This document shows, piece by piece, positions 4,751 through 18,583 of a DNA stretch of 22,183 nucleotides. A program made the position numbers and the translations under genes. The notes beneath the pieces are model-generated. The model searched no databases. It saw only the letters and a program-made list of their open reading frames with translations, and had not been told where the DNA came from. The stretch is from a virus (taxonomy: Duplodnaviria > Heunggongvirae > Uroviricota > Caudoviricetes), in IMG/VR virus record IMGVR_UViG_2778261277_000014. One strand, written 5' to 3'. Numbering within the stretch: the first letter of the stretch is position 1; each line of letters opens with the position of its first letter.

Positions 4751-4808
4751 AAAAACGGCGGCAGAGCAGTCACGGAGTAAAACTGATACCGCCAAACGTC
4801 ACCAGAAA
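4751..4808 (-). ncRNA. dicF: DicF-like small RNA (about 53 nt) ending in an intrinsic terminator (GGCGG...GCCGCC stem + U tract)
   Basis: Minus-strand sequence UUUCUGGUGACGUUUGGCGGUAUCAGUUUUACUCCGUGACUGCUCUGCCGCCGUUUUU matches, from memory, the published DicF sRNA at all but about one position; located between the ydf genes and dicB. Confidence 0.65.
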
Positions 4809-10191: not shown

Positions 10192-10402
10192 TTTCACATT
10201 GGCGAGGTAACGGTAGTTAAGTAGAATGGCTGCGGGTGCTTGAGGCTATCTGCCTCGGGCATGAACACCAACGGCAGATAGAGAAAAGCCCCAGTTAACA
10301 TTACGCGTCCTGCAAGACGCTTAACATTAATCTGAGGCCAATTTCATGCTAGACACATGTAGGTTAGCCTCTTACGTGCCGAAAGGCAAGGAGAAGCAGG
10401 CT

Positions 10403-10558
10403 ATGAAGCAGCAAAAGGCGATGTTAATCGCCCTGATCGTCATCTGTTTAACCGTCATAGTGACGGTACTGGTAACGAGGAAAGACCTCTGCGAGGTACG
10501 AATCCGAACCGGGCAGACGGAGGTCGCTGTCTTCACAGCTTACGAACCTGAGGAGTAA
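10403..10558 (+). CDS. hok: Hok/Gef-family type I toxin (HokD/RelF-like, 51 aa)
   Basis: MKQQKAMLIALIVICLTVIVTVLVTRKDLCEVRIRTGQTEVAVFTAYEPEE is a textbook Hok sequence; AAGGAG SD upstream; intrinsic terminator downstream. Confidence 0.9.
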   Translation: MKQQKAMLIALIVICLTVIVTVLVTRKDLCEVRIRTGQTEVAVFTAYEPEE

Positions 10559-12434: not shown

Positions 12435-12809
12435 ATGCTCATAGATTTGGTTTTACCTTACCCGCCGACGGTGAACACTTACTGGCGACGCCGTGGCAGC
12501 ACATATTTTATCTCGGAGGAGGGAAAGCGTTATCGCCGGGCTGTGGCGCTTATTGTTCGCCAGCAGCGGCTGAAATTAAGCCTGTCCGGAAGGCTGGCGA
12601 TAAAGGTGATTGCAGAGCCACCGGATAAGCGTCGTCGCGACCTGGACAATATCCTGAAAGCACCGCTGGATGCGCTGACGCATGCGGGAGTGTTAATGGA
12701 CGATGAGCAGTTTGATGAAATCAATATCGTTCGTGGTCAGCCAGTATCTGGTGGACGTATGGGGGTGAAGATTTACCCCATAATGCATGAAGAGCAGGTC
12801 AAAAAATGA
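12435..12809 (+). CDS. rusA: Holliday junction resolvase RusA
   Basis: 124-aa ORF with AAGAGGTG SD; N-terminus MLIDLVLPYPPTVNTYW and size typical of RusA; conserved Asp-rich region (RRRDLDN). Confidence 0.88.
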   Translation: MLIDLVLPYPPTVNTYWRRRGSTYFISEEGKRYRRAVALIVRQQRLKLSLSGRLAIKVIAEPPDKRRRDLDNILKAPLDALTHAGVLMDDEQFDEINIVRGQPVSGGRMGVKIYPIMHEEQVKK

Positions 12810-13627
12810 AACTGGAAGATTTACCGAAATACTACTCCCCAAAATCCCCTTGCCTGACCGATGCATCGGCCTCAACGTCAAAAGATGCGCTGAGTATCAC
12901 TGATGTGATGGCCGCGCAGGGCATGACACAGAATCGGGCTGAGATGGGGTTTTCTGCGTTCCTGGGGAAAATGGGCATCAGTATGAATGACAGGGCGCGG
13001 GCAACAGAATTACTGGCAGATTATGCACTCAGTCGGTGCGATCGTGTGGCGGCGTTGAGAAAACTTCCGGCAGAAATAAAACCGTTAGTGATGCGCATTA
13101 TGGCTTCGTACGCTTTTGAGGATTATGCCCGCAGCGCAGCGAGTAAAAAGCAGTGCCCTTGTTGCTATGGGGAAAAATTTATTGAAAGCGTAGTTTTTAC
13201 AAACAAGGTCCAGTATCCGGATGGTAAGCCGCCGGTATGGGCAAAGTGTACGAAAGGTGTGTATCCGTCTTACTGGGAAGAATGGAAAAAAGTCAGGGAG
13301 GTGGTAAAAGTTGCCTGTCCGGAGTGTGGCGGAAAGGGTGAGGTTTCCACCGCCTGTAAGGATTGCCGTGGGCGTGGTGTCGCCATTCACCGTGAAGAGT
13401 CGGTAAAACGTGGTATGCCTGTTATCAGAGACTGCCAGCGTTGTGGTGGTCGTGGCTATGAAAGACTACCATCAACGGAGGCATTTAATGCTATATGCGA
13501 GGTGACAAACCAGATAACACGCGCGTCATGGGAAAAAACAGTTAAGAAATTCTATGATGCGCTGGTGACCCGGTTTGATATTGAAGAAGCATGGGCTGAG
13601 CGGCAGTTAAAAAAGGTAACTAGGTAA
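12806..13627 (+). CDS. Late-gene antiterminator Q (phage 82/21-type)
   Basis: 273-aa ORF overlapping the rusA stop; paired CxxC zinc motifs (CPCC, CPECGGKG, CKDCRGRG, CQRCGGRG); followed by promoter/terminator then late genes. Confidence 0.82.
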   Translation: MKLEDLPKYYSPKSPCLTDASASTSKDALSITDVMAAQGMTQNRAEMGFSAFLGKMGISMNDRARATELLADYALSRCDRVAALRKLPAEIKPLVMRIMASYAFEDYARSAASKKQCPCCYGEKFIESVVFTNKVQYPDGKPPVWAKCTKGVYPSYWEEWKKVREVVKVACPECGGKGEVSTACKDCRGRGVAIHREESVKRGMPVIRDCQRCGGRGYERLPSTEAFNAICEVTNQITRASWEKTVKKFYDALVTRFDIEEAWAERQLKKVTR

Positions 13628-13665: not shown

Positions 13666-13709
13666 TAATGATGGGCTTTTTATGCCTGACGTTAGAAGAG
13701 TTTCTACAA

Positions 13710-13732
13710 CCCGCCGCCGAGCGGGTTTTTTA
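13710..13732 (+). terminator. Intrinsic terminator (tR'-like) downstream of the late promoter: CCCGC-CGCCGA-GCGGG + TTTTTT
   Basis: GC stem plus T tract about 45 nt downstream of the candidate promoter, as expected for a Q-antiterminated late-operon start. Confidence 0.6.
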
Positions 13733-13770: not shown

Positions 13771-13846
13771 GGCCCTTTAGCTCAGTGGTGAGAGCGAGCG
13801 ACTCATAATCGCCAGGTCGCTGGTTCAAATCCAGCAAGGGCCACCA
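13771..13846 (+). tRNA. tRNA with CAU anticodon (ileX/ileZ-like, probably tRNA-Ile2; Met not excluded)
   Basis: Full cloverleaf by eye: acceptor GGCCCTT/AAGGGCC, D-arm GCTC..GAGC, anticodon loop CTCATAA, T-arm GCTGG-TTCAAAT-CCAGC, 3' ACCA; resembles E. coli ileX. Confidence 0.85.
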
Positions 13847-13946: not shown

Positions 13947-14023
13947 GCGTTGTTAGCTCAGCCGGACAGAGCAATTGCCTTCTAAGCAATCGGTCACTGG
14001 TTCGAATCCAGTACAGCGCGCCA
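13947..14023 (+). tRNA. tRNA-Arg (UCU anticodon), argN/argO/argU-like
   Basis: Cloverleaf: acceptor GCGTTGT/ACAGCGC, anticodon loop CTTCTAA, T-arm ACTGG-TTCGAAT-CCAGT, 3' GCCA; resembles argU. Confidence 0.85.
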
Positions 14024-14487: not shown

Positions 14488-15020
14488 ATACATATCTGGA
14501 TTATCACCTGTTACGGTAAAAAGTGATTGCTTACTGTTTTTGTGAATGGCATTGCAGCAGCCGGATAATGTCAGTGCTGGCTGACGGTGTGCTGGTGGCG
14601 GGTGTGGTAGTTGTTGCTTTCCCGTTGCTGAAAAAGAAAACGCCAGACTGTTAGCCGGGTATCAGTTAGCGGGAGAAATTTTTAAATACTTCACAATTCA
14701 GGCGGTTGACTGTTCTCTGGTTTGCGGGGAGTTTGTTAAAAGAAACTGGCATGGTGAATCCCCCTGTGCGGAGGGGCAATCAGCGAGTAGGTATATGGGA
14801 TAATCGCGGATTCAGGTGCTGGTACTGAATTCACCGGGAGGCACCCGGCACCATGCACTTCAATAGATTCTCTCCACATTATGGATATTCTTTCAGAATA
14901 TCCCACGCAGACTTTGTGTAAATGTTAACAAATGTGCGTTTTATTTGATCTGATTCGCTGTTTGAGCGTCCAAAACAACGGTATATATAATCCTTTACTA
15001 TATGACATATGTGAGGAAAA

Positions 15021-15449
15021 ATGGGTTTTCGTAGCGCATCAATTCTTACGTTGATTATTAGTGGGATTATTATCGGGTGCACTGATGCTGTATCGACAAA
15101 TTATCATGACCGTACATCATATTACTCCGATAAAGCAATAGAGACACAGTATGTGAGTTCATCTGAACGTACTTCTGATGTTAGTGAGGATATCCGTCTG
15201 TATGCCCATCAAATCAAGAGCGCCATCGAAAAACAGTTCGGGGATGCGAGTAAGTATTCAGGAAAAGAGTGTACACTGAGAATGCATATGGCCCCGAATG
15301 GCCTTCTACTGGAGGTTAAAAGAGAAAGTGGAGACCTCGATTTATGTCGTGAAGCGATGAATGCGATAAAGAATGCTGATATACCTGCCCCCCCTTCGCC
15401 GGAAGTATATAAAGTATTTCAAAATGGGGTGCTGGATTTTAAACCCTGA
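15021..15449 (+). CDS. Lipoprotein with TolA domain-III-like C-terminal domain (142 aa)
   Basis: Signal peptide with lipobox IIGC; C-terminal ~80 aa (YAHQIKSAIEKQFGDASKYSGKECTLRMHMAPNGLLLEV...PEVYKVFQNGVLDFKP) closely resembles the C-terminal domain of E. coli TolA (recalled ...FKNAPLDFKP ending). Confidence 0.8.
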   Translation: MGFRSASILTLIISGIIIGCTDAVSTNYHDRTSYYSDKAIETQYVSSSERTSDVSEDIRLYAHQIKSAIEKQFGDASKYSGKECTLRMHMAPNGLLLEVKRESGDLDLCREAMNAIKNADIPAPPSPEVYKVFQNGVLDFKP

Positions 15450-15599
15450 TATTTATTGTTTTGTAATAAACGGTTTCGGCTTAGGTTTGTTCTGACACAA
15501 CTACGGCACTGAGCTAAATCTAGCGGATAGTCAGCTCTGAGCCAGTGGCGGACGTAACAACTACTATTGCTGAGATTTTAATGGATTGAGGAGCAAGAA

Positions 15600-15995
15600 G
15601 TGGGATTAAAGAAAATCGTTATGTTGACTTTTTGGGTCGGTTTTGTTGCGGGATGCACACCTTTACACCCTTCAGATTGCCACAAAACTACTGCTACAGG
15701 TAGTTGCAGTTCAGGACGCTGGGATGATCAGGATGAATGGGGGGCGCAAGCGCGGGGAATCAGAGCTGCAATTAATGCCAAACTTGATGAGCCGCATAAC
15801 TGGAAAGGGAAAAAATGCAGGTTGCATATGGAATTCTCTCAGGATGGCACGGCGTTAAAAATATCTACCAGTAACGGTGATAAAGCCTATTGCGAAGCGA
15901 TAAAGTCCGCAGCTCATAAAGCCAAATTTCCGGCCTTCAACAATCCGGAAGTCTACAGAGATTTTCAGAAATCTGGCTTTGACATGCGAGGTTAG
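15600..15995 (+). CDS. Second, divergent lipoprotein paralogue with TolA-III-like C-terminal domain (131 aa)
   Basis: GTG start 6 nt after GAGGAG SD; lipobox VAGC; C-terminal block (GKKCRLHMEFSQDGTALKI...CEAIKSAAHKAKFPAFNNPEVYRDFQ) shares the same pattern as the upstream paralogue. Confidence 0.75.
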   Translation: MGLKKIVMLTFWVGFVAGCTPLHPSDCHKTTATGSCSSGRWDDQDEWGAQARGIRAAINAKLDEPHNWKGKKCRLHMEFSQDGTALKISTSNGDKAYCEAIKSAAHKAKFPAFNNPEVYRDFQKSGFDMRG

Positions 15996-16120: not shown

Positions 16121-16143
16121 AGCTCGCTACGGCGAGCTTTTTA
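16121..16143 (+). terminator. Intrinsic terminator after the lipoprotein pair (AGCTCGC-TACG-GCGAGCT + TTTTT)
   Basis: Perfect 7-bp stem, tetraloop, T tract. Confidence 0.7.
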
Positions 16144-16246: not shown

Positions 16247-16462
16247 ATGAAATCCATGGACAAAATTTCAACAGGCATTGCCTACGGCACCTCCGCAGGC
16301 AGTGCTGGCTACTGGTTTTTACAGCTGCTCGATAAAGTCACGCCCTCACAGTGGGCAGCAATAGGTGTGCTGGGTAGCCTGGTATTTGGCCTGCTGACGT
16401 ACCTGACAAATCTTTATTTCAAGATTAAAGAAGACAGGCGTAAGGCTGCGAGAGGAGAGTAA
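16247..16462 (+). CDS. Class II holin / pinholin (phage 21 S21-like) with dual-start motif MKSMDK
   Basis: GGAGGTGAGG SD; two in-frame ATGs three codons apart (16247, 16256); TM segments and C-terminus ...[20 protein letters not shown] match recalled S21. Confidence 0.85.
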
Positions 16463-16466
16463 TCCA

Positions 16467-16778
16467 ATGACTCAAGACTATGAACTGGTTGTGAAAGGAG
16501 TCCGTAATTTTGAGAATAAAGTTACGGTAACTGTAGCCTTACAGGACAAAGAACGCTTTGACGGTGAAATTTTTGGCCTGGATGTCGCCATGGACCGTGT
16601 TGAAGGAGCTGCGCTGGAGTTTTATGAGGCAGCAGCCAGAATGAGCGTCCGGCAAGTCTTCCTGGAAGTAGCAGAAAAATTGTCAGAAAAAGTTGAGTCT
16701 TATCTGCAGCATCAGTACTCCTTTAAGATTGAAAATCCTGCCAATAAGCACGAGCGTCCTCATCATAAATATCTATGA
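16467..16778 (+). CDS. YdfR-like protein (103 aa) inserted between holin and endolysin
   Basis: GAGGAGAG SD; stop overlaps endolysin ATG (ATGA); same position and size as ydfR in Qin (recalled). Confidence 0.7.
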   Translation: MTQDYELVVKGVRNFENKVTVTVALQDKERFDGEIFGLDVAMDRVEGAALEFYEAAARMSVRQVFLEVAEKLSEKVESYLQHQYSFKIENPANKHERPHHKYL

Positions 16779-17308
16779 ACACAAAAATCAGATACGGCCT
16801 GTCGGCTGCCGTTCTGGCGCTGATTGGTGCTGGCGCATCTGCTCCTCAGATACTTGACCAGTTTCTGGACGAAAAAGAAGGTAACCACACAATGGCATAC
16901 CGCGATGGTTCTGGCATATGGACCATCTGTCGGGGTGCCACAGTGGTGGATGGAAAAACCGTTTTTCCCAATATGAAACTGTCGAAGGAAAAATGCGACC
17001 AGGTCAACGCCATTGAGCGTGATAAGGCGCTGGCATGGGTGGAGCGCAATATAAAAGTTCCACTGACCGAGCCACAGAAAGCCGGTATCGCGTCATTCTG
17101 TCCCTATAACATTGGCCCTGGTAAGTGTTTTCCGTCGACGTTTTATAAGCGGCTTAATGCCGGTGATCGTAAAGGCGCATGCGAGGCGATTCGCTGGTGG
17201 ATAAAGGACGGTGGACGTGATTGCCGCATTCGTTCAAATAATTGTTACGGTCAGGTTATTCGTCGTGACCAGGAGAGTGCATTAACCTGCTGGGGGATAG
17301 AACAGTGA
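16775..17308 (+). CDS. SAR endolysin (T4-lysozyme-like muramidase with N-terminal signal-anchor-release domain)
   Basis: N-terminal weakly hydrophobic Gly/Ala-rich segment ([16 protein letters not shown]) followed by E...D...T catalytic pattern ([20 protein letters not shown]); pairs with a pinholin as in phage 21. Confidence 0.88.
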
Positions 17309-17802
17309 ATCAGATATTCACGGTGATTTTGCTCGTGTTGGTAGGATTTGTCGTAGGTAATGTCTGGAGCGACAGAGGATGGCAAAAAAAATGGGCGGAG
17401 CGTGATGCTGCCGAATTATCTCAAGAGGTAAATGTCCAATTTGCTGTTCGAATAATTGAACAGGGGCGAAGTATATCCCGTGATGAGGCTGTTAAAGATG
17501 CACAACAGAAAGCCGCTGAAATTTCTGCCAGGGCTGCTGATCTGTCTGATAGTGTTAACCAGCTGCGTGCCGAAGCAACAAAATATGCCATACGCCTTGA
17601 CGCAGCGCAGCATACCGCAAATCTTGCCGCTGCCGTCAGAGGCAAAACAACCAAAGCCGCCGAAGGAATGCTCACCAACATGCTCGGAGATATTGCAGCA
17701 GAAGCTCAGCTTTATGCTGAAATTGCTGACAAACGCTACATCGCAGGAGTGACTTGTCAACGGATTTATGAATCTTTAAGAGATAAAAAATATCAGATGT
17801 AG
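17305..17802 (+). CDS. Rz-like inner-membrane spanin (i-spanin)
   Basis: N-terminal TM helix then coiled-coil-like, Ala/Gln-rich periplasmic region; overlaps endolysin stop (GTGA); contains an embedded +1-frame lipoprotein ORF. Confidence 0.8.
17498..17752 (+). CDS. Rz1-like outer-membrane lipoprotein spanin (o-spanin) embedded in Rz in the +1 frame
   Basis: Lipobox LTSC followed by a proline-rich mature region; GAGG SD 9 nt upstream of ATG 17498 (upstream ATG 17483 also possible). Confidence 0.6.
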
Positions 17803-18053
17803 ATTAATATTAAATCGGATTATTTTTAGCGCTGAATGTGAAATTTAAATAAAAAGGACTCTTCCATGAGTCAAAATCCTTGAAATCTTAAGGGTAAGAT
17901 AAAAGGTCATTAGACAGAATGACACGTTTTATTAATAAATAAAGCTATTGTTTCATTCGTGTGTTTTTCTTTACAAAAGTAATCCTTGCTATGGTTGGTT
18001 AATCATGCGTTAATGGTGTTCTGGTTTGTTACAAAATTATCTGAAGCAGTCAT

Positions 18054-18062
18054 TGTTATAAT
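18054..18062 (+). promoter_or_regulatory. Extended -10 element (TGtTATAAT) of a candidate promoter for the cold-shock gene, giving a ~95-nt 5' UTR
   Basis: Read directly in an AT-rich region; no good -35, consistent with UP-element/extended -10 promoters of csp genes. Confidence 0.4.
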
Positions 18063-18162
18063 TTTATTATTTGTACCTCTTGAGATTTCCTTGTTGGTTT
18101 TTCTCTCTGATATTTTTTTTCGGACCATTCTGCCCAAGGGCTAACTTCTTCAAAAGGTAATA

Positions 18163-18378
18163 ATGATGTCTAACAAAATGACTGGTTTAGTGAAATGGTT
18201 TAACCCTGAAAAAGGTTTTGGTTTCATCACGCCGAAAGATGGTAGCAAAGATGTGTTTGTGCATTTCTCAGCTATTCAGAGCAACGATTTCAAAACGTTA
18301 ACTGAGAATCAGGAAGTCGAATTTGGTATTGAGAACGGACCTAAAGGCCCTGCAGCTGTTCATGTAGTGGCACTTTGA
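18163..18378 (+). CDS. Cold-shock protein, CspA family (CspB/CspI-like)
   Basis: RNP motifs KGFGFI and VFVHF; about 70 aa; prophage-borne csp genes are typical of Qin. Confidence 0.9.
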
Positions 18379-18583
18379 GGTAGAAAATATTACAAACCAT
18401 ATTCACTTTAGATGCCCGTGTTGCCATGGTTCTCAGTATAGAACATCATCTTTTGATGTTTCTGACAGAAATCCTTTCGGGGCAAAATGTATCTTTTGTA
18501 AATCAATGATGATTACATTTGATAATATTTCACAATACTTAAATGTTAGCCATCTGTCGTTAGATTTAAGAAAGTGAAAATGA

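Follow-up and report, generated by a model that had tools for sequence, protein, structure and literature searches.

Two adjacent genes at positions 15,021 to 15,995 of the IMG/VR virus record IMGVR_UViG_2778261277_000014 (Caudoviricetes; the whole analysed stretch of 22,183 nucleotides is called the window below) encode short lipoproteins that end in the C-terminal domain of the host protein TolA (domain III, TolA-III). The products of these two open reading frames, ORF A and ORF B, belong to the TolA C-terminal domain family, yet they are not TolA. Judging from its sequence, the cassette that they form has the anatomy of a moron of two genes, complete in itself, within the Q-dependent late operon of a Qin-type prophage; its promoter is recognized as a consensus match. 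We tentatively propose that both proteins are outer-membrane decoys, which intercept Tol-dependent colicins and the g3p protein of filamentous phages; this is the reading that we favour, at a chance which we judge to be a little below even.

Two lipoproteins with a TolA-III domain

The cassette consists of the following parts (positions of the window).

14962-14991, + strand: σ70 promoter-like site TTGAGC-18 nt-TATAAT, 10 of 12 consensus positions, ending 30 nt before the start codon of ORF A
15021-15449, + strand: ORF A, 142 amino acids (aa), ATG start
15021-15080, + strand: signal peptide and lipobox of ORF A (MGFRSASILTLIISGIIIGC), IIGC, predicted lipidated Cys20, Thr at +2
15081-15182, + strand: linker of ORF A, residues 21-54, predicted to be disordered, weak constraint
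15183-15449, + strand: TolA-III domain of ORF A (PF06519), residues 55-142, with the stop codon
15450-15599, + strand: A-B spacer of 150 nt, including the Shine-Dalgarno sequence GAGGAG of ORF B
15600-15995, + strand: ORF B, 131 aa, GTG start preceded by GAGGAG
15600-15656, + strand: signal peptide and lipobox of ORF B (M/V-GLKKIVMLTFWVGFVAGC), VAGC, predicted lipidated Cys19, Thr at +2
15657-15728, + strand: N-terminal Cys-loop segment of ORF B (TPLHPSDCHKTTATGSCSSGRWDD...), residues 20-43
15729-15995, + strand: TolA-III-like domain of ORF B (PF06519), residues 44-131, with the stop codon
16121-16146, + strand: intrinsic terminator AGCTCGC-TACG-GCGAGCT followed by TTTTTATA (hairpin 16121-16138 and T-run)

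Each predicted protein starts with a basic n-region and a hydrophobic core followed by a lipobox; the two lipoboxes (IIGC in the first, VAGC in the second) had been stated in an earlier note on this DNA, made from the letters alone. The signal of ORF A is modelled by AlphaFold with a confidence (predicted local distance difference test, pLDDT) below 50, as expected for a segment that is cleaved off. The linker is also of low confidence (pLDDT of 37-41 over residues 19-49); its sequence diverges strongly among A variants, and its ratio of nonsynonymous to synonymous substitutions (dN/dS) was 0.32-0.59 against two variants (all such ratios given here are pairwise Nei-Gojobori estimates; the genes are short, and some of the comparisons come close to saturation at synonymous sites).

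The remaining part of ORF A matches the Pfam family of the TolA C-terminal domain, PF06519, with 82.6 bits (E = 2.4e-23, residues 49-140; gathering score 25 bits), and E was 5e-28 against TolA-III chains of the PDB. In agreement with the description of this domain in the earlier note, it aligns with residues 334-421 of Escherichia coli TolA without a gap to the very last residue (...VLDFKP), with 52 of 88 positions (59%) being identical, and it retains both disulphide cysteines (Cys363 and Cys388 of E. coli TolA). The AlphaFold model, whose pLDDT is ~90 in the domain, superposes on 2x9a_B with a root-mean-square deviation (rmsd) of 0.6 Å over 88 columns (TM score 0.96). The dN/dS of the domain (0.24-0.29) indicates moderate purifying selection. 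When compared with every full-length TolA representative that an exhaustive profile search had yielded, ORF A is nearest to the Escherichia type (59%), and its identity to the other TolA proteins declines in step with their distance from E. coli TolA. This argues that ORF A is a host-matched copy, or mimic, of E. coli TolA-III.

ORF B gave a lower score with PF06519, again above the gathering score (54.6 bits, E = 1.3e-14, residues 44-125), and is 31% identical to residues 334-421 of E. coli TolA (27 of 88 positions), with both disulphide cysteines kept. Its model (pLDDT ~90 in the domain) superposes on 3qdp with an rmsd of 1.0 Å over 86 columns (TM score 0.93). Profile and structure comparisons thus support the proposed likeness to TolA-III for both proteins. 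The earlier reading of ORF B as a divergent paralogue of ORF A has to be revised: ORF B is more than a duplicate that has diverged, and it represents a distinct family. ORF A and ORF B are ~29% identical and differ in taxonomic range and genetic context, which led us to reject a tandem duplication as their origin. ORF B is ~30% identical to every TolA, i.e. equidistant from all of them, and its TolA-III-like domain is under strong purifying selection (dN/dS of 0.06-0.08). Its sequence relationships point to an independent, older and strongly conserved family, with chromosomal and plasmid members.

The homologues of ORF B keep the pattern VKKIV...AGC in the signal peptide. Behind it lies the Cys-loop segment, which contains two extra cysteines (CHKTTATGSC), is predicted by AlphaFold with low confidence, is nearly invariant across genera and is retained in B-like proteins down to ~37% identity. 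The dN/dS of this segment (0.01-0.10; 2-4 nonsynonymous against 8-15 synonymous differences) is tighter than that of the domain. This pattern of conservation marks the Cys-loop segment as a probable functional element. A reading of the invariant B segment SSGRWDDQDEWG as a colicin-type TolB box (DG[ST]GW and a second Trp) was rejected, both Trp residues being unconserved in B-like proteins of 37-49% identity.

The alignments of the NCBIfam TolA models with the two proteins are confined to the final ~95 positions of the models (293-386 of 387 and 265-362 of 362). With NF007065, the scores were 107.8 for ORF A and 53.7 for ORF B, against a cut-off of 213, and domains I and II of the full-length TolA architecture are absent. 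Nor are the genes found in the context of the TolA operon (ybgC-tolQRA-tolB-pal-cpoB), lying instead between the Q and tRNA genes and a prophage holin. ORF A passes the cut-off of TIGR02794 (75.6 against 59.45) by virtue of domain III alone, which accounts for the misleading "tolA" label that it receives from the Prokaryotic Genome Annotation Pipeline (PGAP). Genome annotation is affected by this name, "cell envelope integrity protein TolA", which is attached to ORF A (as tolA) in hundreds of RefSeq genomes (cf. locus L005, 20122-21096). It is also worth mentioning that PGAP starts ORF B 21 nt late, at the ATG at 15621 instead of the GTG at 15600, with loss of the basic n-region.

According to the Lol +2 rule, an Asp at position +2 is a signal for Lol avoidance. 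Since ORF A and ORF B carry Thr at this position and not Asp, both would be sorted to the outer membrane. In PHROG, both belong to phrog_5772, a family without an assigned function, and neither matched an annotated exclusion family; a search of the BFVD viral structures gave no match at E <= 1e-3. Like the earlier note, which knew of no described function for such a pair, our search of full-text open-access papers and preprints found no functional study, although an older or paywalled report may exist. Two surveys mention a plasmid "tolA" gene in passing and leave it uninterpreted, and a paper on O157 in soil and water deals with the tolA gene of the host.

Structure and conservation of the cassette

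The promoter-like site upstream of ORF A was the top scorer in a scan of 4.1 kb; it is a consensus match only. Because the A-B spacer contains no predicted promoter-like or terminator-like site on the + strand, the two genes are probably co-transcribed. A regulatory RNA structure in this spacer of fixed length was considered and rejected (z = -0.64). The terminator that the earlier note had assigned to the pair proved to be a strong one: the hairpin has a folding energy of -13 kcal/mol (z = -3.4), and 0 of 200 shuffled sequences folded equally well.

The conservation of these elements was analysed in 80 independent prophage contigs from IMG/VR (77 loci for the spacing of ORF B and for the terminator). 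The promoter-like site was kept with no more than 2 mismatches in 79 of the 80 copies. ORF B follows ORF A at a distance of exactly 150 nt in 76 of the 77 loci, the terminator is kept in equally many (76/77), and the cassette as a whole is nearly invariant in 76 of the 77 prophage copies. The 10/12 promoter-like site and the strong terminator hairpin are both conserved, and related prophages have other cargo, or ORF A alone, in the same slot; this anatomy suggests a moron. Such an arrangement would allow expression from the cassette's own promoter in the lysogen and, by read-through, late in lytic growth.

Distribution of the two families

Family A (46 clusters) is confined to E. coli and Shigella. 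It was detected in 888 of 5,426 complete E. coli genomes, at 950 chromosomal and 2 plasmid places, and it occupied the slot between Q and the holin gene in every A locus inspected. Diverged A variants (66% identity) stand alone in this slot, beside an AraC-type gene and a SASA esterase/DUF1378/DUF826/holin series, in lambdoid prophages with an Stx-phage-like layout of the late region. Their presence there bears out the earlier remark that related phages use this slot for morons; it is the position at which Stx phages carry stx. The cassette is present in ~15% of complete E. coli genomes; ORF A is intact in 883 genomes and ORF B in 1,263. Of the 50,697 records of sequenced phages, a single one, a prophage-derived assembly, carried either gene.

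Family B (368 clusters) extends to Citrobacter, Enterobacter, Serratia, Klebsiella and Raoultella, at 78-89% identity. In E. coli it was detected in 1,269 of 5,426 complete genomes, where it is confined to mobile elements, and 607 plasmids of PLSDB carry it, 259 of them conjugative. On pO157 (L003, 6815-7246), the B-type gene follows ssb-psiB-psiA-hok in the presumed leading region. On conjugative plasmids of the IncK2/Z type (I-complex, MPF_I), it follows the mobA/relaxase operon in the same orientation after a gap of 68 nt and adjoins trbABC, at the following places.

L007, 6964-7395: B-type gene
L023, 6965-7396: B-type gene
L024, 6965-7396: B-type gene

The Enterobacter cloacae complex has one B gene, whose chromosomal surroundings are stable and non-mobile, and in Serratia it is found in the chromosome between nrdDG and a GmrSD/HEPN pair. 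In one Serratia marcescens locus (L012, 8001-10736), the B-type gene is directly followed by the GmrSD_N (DUF262-type) and HEPN genes, which together have the look of a module for defence against phages. As B forms an independent family that is chromosomal in other genera, a phage-centred story alone does not fit it.

Related lipoproteins and their plasmid neighbourhoods

An exhaustive search of 1.84 billion representatives with a hidden Markov model yielded 594 hits. The best 150 of these include 96 proteins of less than 175 aa; a signal sequence with a lipobox is present in at least 62 of the 96, and a few have ordinary signal peptides. None of these (at least 62) related short lipoproteins has an Asp at +2, and the lipobox is conserved in the homologues of A and B. 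Several lineages of short lipoproteins (P0190, P0201, P0184, P0180 and P0221) are 59-66% identical to E. coli TolA-III, which equals or exceeds the value for ORF A; this suggests that a lipoprotein signal has acquired a copy of TolA-III on more than one occasion.

Some of the relatives reside on plasmids. On ColE1-type Klebsiella plasmids of 10-12 kb, the gene of a TolA-III lipoprotein overlaps the start of a gene encoding a TonB C-terminal domain (TonB_C) with a signal peptide. The K. pneumoniae plasmid p1_020030 (L002, 1841-2574, - strand) may serve as an example: the lipobox of its TolA-III lipoprotein is LTAC, and the overlap with the TonB_C gene (1841-2206) is 4 nt. This pair is divergent from an operon for a colicin-like tRNase bacteriocin with its immunity and lysis genes, and the 10-kb ColE1-type plasmid of the p1_020030 type occurs in many K. 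pneumoniae isolates. On the Klebsiella IncF plasmid pCuAs (L004, 5229-6258), a gene for a thioredoxin-fold protein (Thioredoxin_2/DsbA-like) is located directly upstream of the TolA-III lipoprotein gene, which hints at a dedicated disulphide-forming partner for a disulphide-containing domain.

Binding surfaces and the proposed decoy model

The N1 domain of g3p (g3p-N1), colicin N and TolB each add a strand to β3 of TolA (A415-K420) (PMC4339652, PMC7391070). The corresponding strand of ORF A reads GVLDFKP, against APLDFKP in TolA, with an identical LDFKP; in ORF B it reads SGFDMRG, the β character being kept and the sequence diverged. For colicin A, the site of strand addition is β2 (L375-P380), and there are cation-π contacts with K368, K379 and K396 (PMC3365938). 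At this site, ORF A has LLEVKR in place of LLDIKP and the residues H/K/K at the three contact positions, i.e. K379 and K396 are kept. The top structural match of the ORF A model is 2x9a, the complex of If1 g3p with TolA.

TolA-III binds colicins with an affinity of ~1 µM, compared with ~40 µM for TolB, so that a decoy may block invaders more than housekeeping. The TolA tyrosine tied to TolB binding is Y352 in the numbering of PMC2707214, a paper that contains no competition experiment; it is replaced by Gly in ORF A and by Asp in ORF B. The replacement may weaken the binding of TolB and, more speculatively, might lower the housekeeping cost of a decoy further.

On the basis of these features, the following mechanism can be envisaged. 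Each protein would present a folded TolA-III copy on a flexible tether of ~30 residues at the inner face of the outer membrane, in the periplasm. Having neither the membrane anchor of TolA nor the periplasm-spanning stalk that couples it to TolQR, A and B could bind ligands without being able to transmit force; binding without pulling would make them dominant-negative competitors of host TolA. Decoys in this position would sit where incoming proteins emerge from the porins and would meet the ligands before host TolA does. Three kinds of ligand would be captured: group A colicins by their TolA-binding epitopes, TolB by the N-terminus that it exposes when bound to a colicin, and g3p of filamentous phages by its N1 domain. 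Since these would never engage the energised TolQRA motor, the lysogen would gain tolerance to filamentous phages and to those bacteriocins that depend on Tol. ORF A would serve as the close mimic of E. coli TolA, and ORF B as an ancient relative whose partner is probably different or broader. Both the ligand binding and the tolerance phenotype are inferred here.

The model is circumstantially strengthened by the location of relatives on colicin-type plasmids (in an operon with TonB_C), on I-complex plasmids and on pO157, and by the retention of β3 in ORF A. The pili of conjugative plasmids of the I-complex type are receptors for TolA-dependent filamentous phages. An operon that joins TolA-III to a TonB C-terminal domain (TonB-CTD) and is flanked by a bacteriocin locus has the appearance of a safeguard that acts during translocation and covers both groups of colicins. 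It is conceivable, and we advance it with more reserve than the proposal for A and B themselves, that mobile elements of Enterobacterales carry a widespread and so far unrecognized class of anchorless transducer-head decoys (TolA-III lipoproteins and soluble periplasmic TonB-CTD proteins) conferring receptor-independent immunity against bacteriocins and pilus-specific filamentous phages. If this is correct, the host-matched A and its ancient relative B would together widen the coverage, and the plasmid copies would shield cells that have just acquired pili against those filamentous phages to which the plasmid makes them sensitive.

Several observations weigh against the decoy model. ORF B, with 31% identity to TolA-III, has lost the colicin A contacts (ALKIST in β2, and E/S/H in place of K368/K379/K396). 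Through β3, a decoy would bind TolB as well, with possible harm to the Tol-Pal system; TolA-III exported by a signal sequence (the construct of Wan and Baneyx) is known to make E. coli leak periplasmic proteins (PMC6195910). The exchange of the TolB-linked tyrosine could just as well mean that the surface has changed. The promoter is recognized by its consensus only, and the cassette lies within the Q-dependent late operon, so that the main expression could be lytic. Neither protein had a match in PADLOC at E <= 1. Finally, B genes reside in non-mobile chromosomal neighbourhoods in Enterobacter and are under very strong purifying selection that includes the N-terminal Cys-loop, a pattern more in keeping with a conserved cellular partner than with a decoy engaged in an arms race.

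Alternative explanations

The first alternative is that A and B modulate the Tol-Pal system itself: they would bind the N-terminus of TolB (or CpoB), damp the transmission of force from TolA to TolB and thereby loosen the outer membrane, for instance for the release of vesicles or for the final stage of phage lysis when the late operon is active, with tolerance to colicins and phages as a side effect. TolB indeed uses the β3 strand that is kept in ORF A, periplasmic TolA-III makes periplasmic proteins leak, and a review of Tol-Pal states that tuning of the TolB interactions could regulate vesicle production. The position directly upstream of the holin, lysozyme and Rz genes, inside the Q-dependent late unit, would bring strong expression just before lysis. 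The phage, however, already has a full set of lysis genes including the Rz/Rz1 spanin, and the cassette has a promoter-like site and a terminator of its own, like morons expressed in the lysogen. Moreover, B-type genes in chromosomes and plasmids have no lysis genes nearby, the affinity of TolA for TolB is low (~40 µM), and neither protein retains the tyrosine linked to TolB binding. We consider this explanation unlikely. If it were true, A and B would be the first natural regulators of Tol-Pal borne by mobile elements.

A second alternative, to which we assign a similarly low probability, is that B, and possibly A, has an envelope function of its own, which would have nothing to do with blocking import; the TolA/TonB-type β-strand-augmentation fold and the Cys-loop would bind a conserved partner in the periplasm or the outer membrane, and mobile elements would simply carry the gene for its contribution to fitness. 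The single-copy B genes in stable, non-mobile neighbourhoods of Enterobacter and the nrdDG-GmrSD/HEPN site in Serratia agree with this, as do the identity of 78-89% across genera, the low dN/dS of the domain (0.06-0.08) and of the Cys-loop (0.01-0.10), and the equal distance (~30%) from every TolA. The 594 representatives, with at least 62 short lipoproteins among the best 150, likewise speak for an old and diverse family. No candidate partner emerged, however, and every E. coli copy of B is on a mobile element, the plasmid copies lying by transfer or leading-region genes; the pairing of relatives with an exported TonB_C protein beside a bacteriocin operon points to import machinery rather than to housekeeping.

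Superinfection exclusion of tailed phages, in the manner of Cor or Llp, would involve the blocking of a receptor or of a periplasmic step and would leave colicins unaffected. Small outer-membrane lipoproteins of temperate and T5-like phages (Cor, Llp; a 2026 preprint treats Llp and FhuA) are a known exclusion device, and phages often have lipoprotein morons close to their lysis genes (bor of λ). We nevertheless regard this explanation as improbable: neither protein resembles an annotated exclusion family (both fall into phrog_5772, and PADLOC gave no match), and the fold argues for TolA ligands and against a plug of an outer-membrane receptor. To our knowledge, no tailed coliphage needs TolA-III.

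That the genes are non-functional debris of captured tolA fragments, as the PGAP label of ORF A and a match limited to the C-terminal quarter of TolA might suggest, is effectively refuted by their conservation and dN/dS (intact ORFs in 883 and 1,263 genomes under purifying selection), by the signal peptides, lipoboxes and Shine-Dalgarno sites that both have acquired, by the conserved promoter-like site and terminator, and by the confident folded models.

Relation to known systems

The fold and the disulphide of A and B are shared with host TolA-III (residues ~314-421; 1S62, 3QDP, 1TOL, 2X9A), and ORF A ends at the same residue. Host TolA, however, has a transmembrane helix with an SHLS motif and a helical stalk; A and B lack both, and with them the coupling to TolQR. 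Host TolA-III is suspended from the inner membrane, whereas the domain of A and B would hang from the outer membrane by a lipoprotein tether.

Some known systems come close to the proposed decoys. The periplasmic g3p of a resident filamentous phage occupies TolA, which leads to colicin tolerance and a block of superinfection. A and B would be the mirror image at the interface of g3p or colicin with TolA-III: g3p masks host TolA, while the lipoproteins would mask the ligand of the invader. Periplasmic TolA-III reportedly gives colicin tolerance in the experiments of Levengood-Freyermuth and co-workers. The engineered forms (Levengood-Freyermuth et al. 1993; Wan and Baneyx 1998) resemble A and B in being anchorless periplasmic TolA-III; they are soluble, of native sequence and overexpressed in the laboratory, whereas A and B are natural, diverged, predicted to be lipid-anchored, and carried by mobile elements.

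Cor (φ80/N15), Llp (T5), Bor (λ) and TraT (F) are, like A and B, small outer-membrane lipoproteins of mobile elements, often encoded near lysis genes. They have no relation to A and B in sequence or fold; Cor and Llp plug FhuA, whereas A and B copy a domain of a host energy transducer. A further parallel is provided by FimU-like minor pilins of phages, which reportedly defend against pilus-dependent phages (PMC12952977). These too are prophage paralogues of a host envelope component that invaders need, expressed so as to change entry, the machinery being the type IV pilus instead of Tol. The exported TonB C-terminal domain of the Klebsiella plasmids is an anchorless and stalkless transducer head behind a signal peptide, as in A and B, but it belongs to the TonB family, has a signal of the signal peptidase I type, is not a lipoprotein and is absent from the window.

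With the function proposed here, the cassette would join the known entry blockers of mobile elements that mimic the host; it is widespread and cleanly delimited. Tolerance to colicins occurs very frequently among natural E. coli, and the usual explanation is costly mutations in receptor or tol genes. If the decoy model is correct, the lipoproteins would offer a cheap, transferable and broad alternative to such mutations, in about one sixth (A) to about one quarter (B) of complete E. coli genomes. They would represent a new principle of protection, in which the periplasmic target of the invader is copied instead of a surface receptor being masked. Antimicrobials based on colicins and klebicins could then be blunted, and the ecology of filamentous phages on conjugative plasmids would be affected.

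Prophage setting of the cassette

The window is part of a Qin-type lambdoid prophage. Across the region, it is 99.9% identical to Escherichia phage mEp460_ev081, and an identical copy of the prophage is integrated beside rspB in strain ECC-1470, together with integrase, replication, lysis, head and tail genes. As the earlier note had recognized, the two lipoprotein genes lie between the Q/tRNA region and the lysis genes. The other features of the window are given below.

4756-4807, - strand: DicF small RNA (sRNA), a typical feature of Qin-like prophages
10234-10408, + strand: sok antitoxin RNA of hokD, a typical feature of Qin-like prophages
12806-13627, + strand: gene of a Q-type late antiterminator (ORF; annotated as antitermination protein in matching phage and chromosome records)
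13708-13727, + strand: tR'-like terminator (terminator prediction)
13771-13846, + strand: tRNA-Met(CAT) (ARAGORN)
13947-14023, + strand: tRNA-Arg(TCT) (tRNA prediction)
14720-14910, + strand: STnc100 sRNA (full-length Rfam match, 114 bits), just upstream of the cassette promoter
16247-17802, + strand: lysis cassette, with an essD-type holin, a ydfR-like ORF, lysozyme, and Rz with embedded Rz1 (ORFs; annotation of identical DNA)
17456-17752, + strand: ORF of the Rz1 lipoprotein, lipobox LTSC, embedded in Rz
18008-18424, + strand: cspA-type thermoregulator in front of a cold-shock gene that follows the lysis genes

The tRNA gene at 13771-13846 was called tRNA-Met(CAT) by ARAGORN, and PGAP annotates the equivalent gene as tRNA-Ile (of the lysidine-modified CAT type). 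Both tRNAs would read codons that are rare in E. coli, like the tRNA clusters upstream of stx in Stx phages. Between the tRNA genes and the cassette lie a DUF3927 mini-ORF and the STnc100 element. The DNA upstream of ORF A is not conserved between contexts, and STnc100, which is absent upstream of A elsewhere, was rejected as a part of the cassette. In another prophage (L006, 5468-8419), five copies of STnc100 form a tandem-like array downstream of an A variant, which identifies this RNA as a repeated element of lambdoid late regions.

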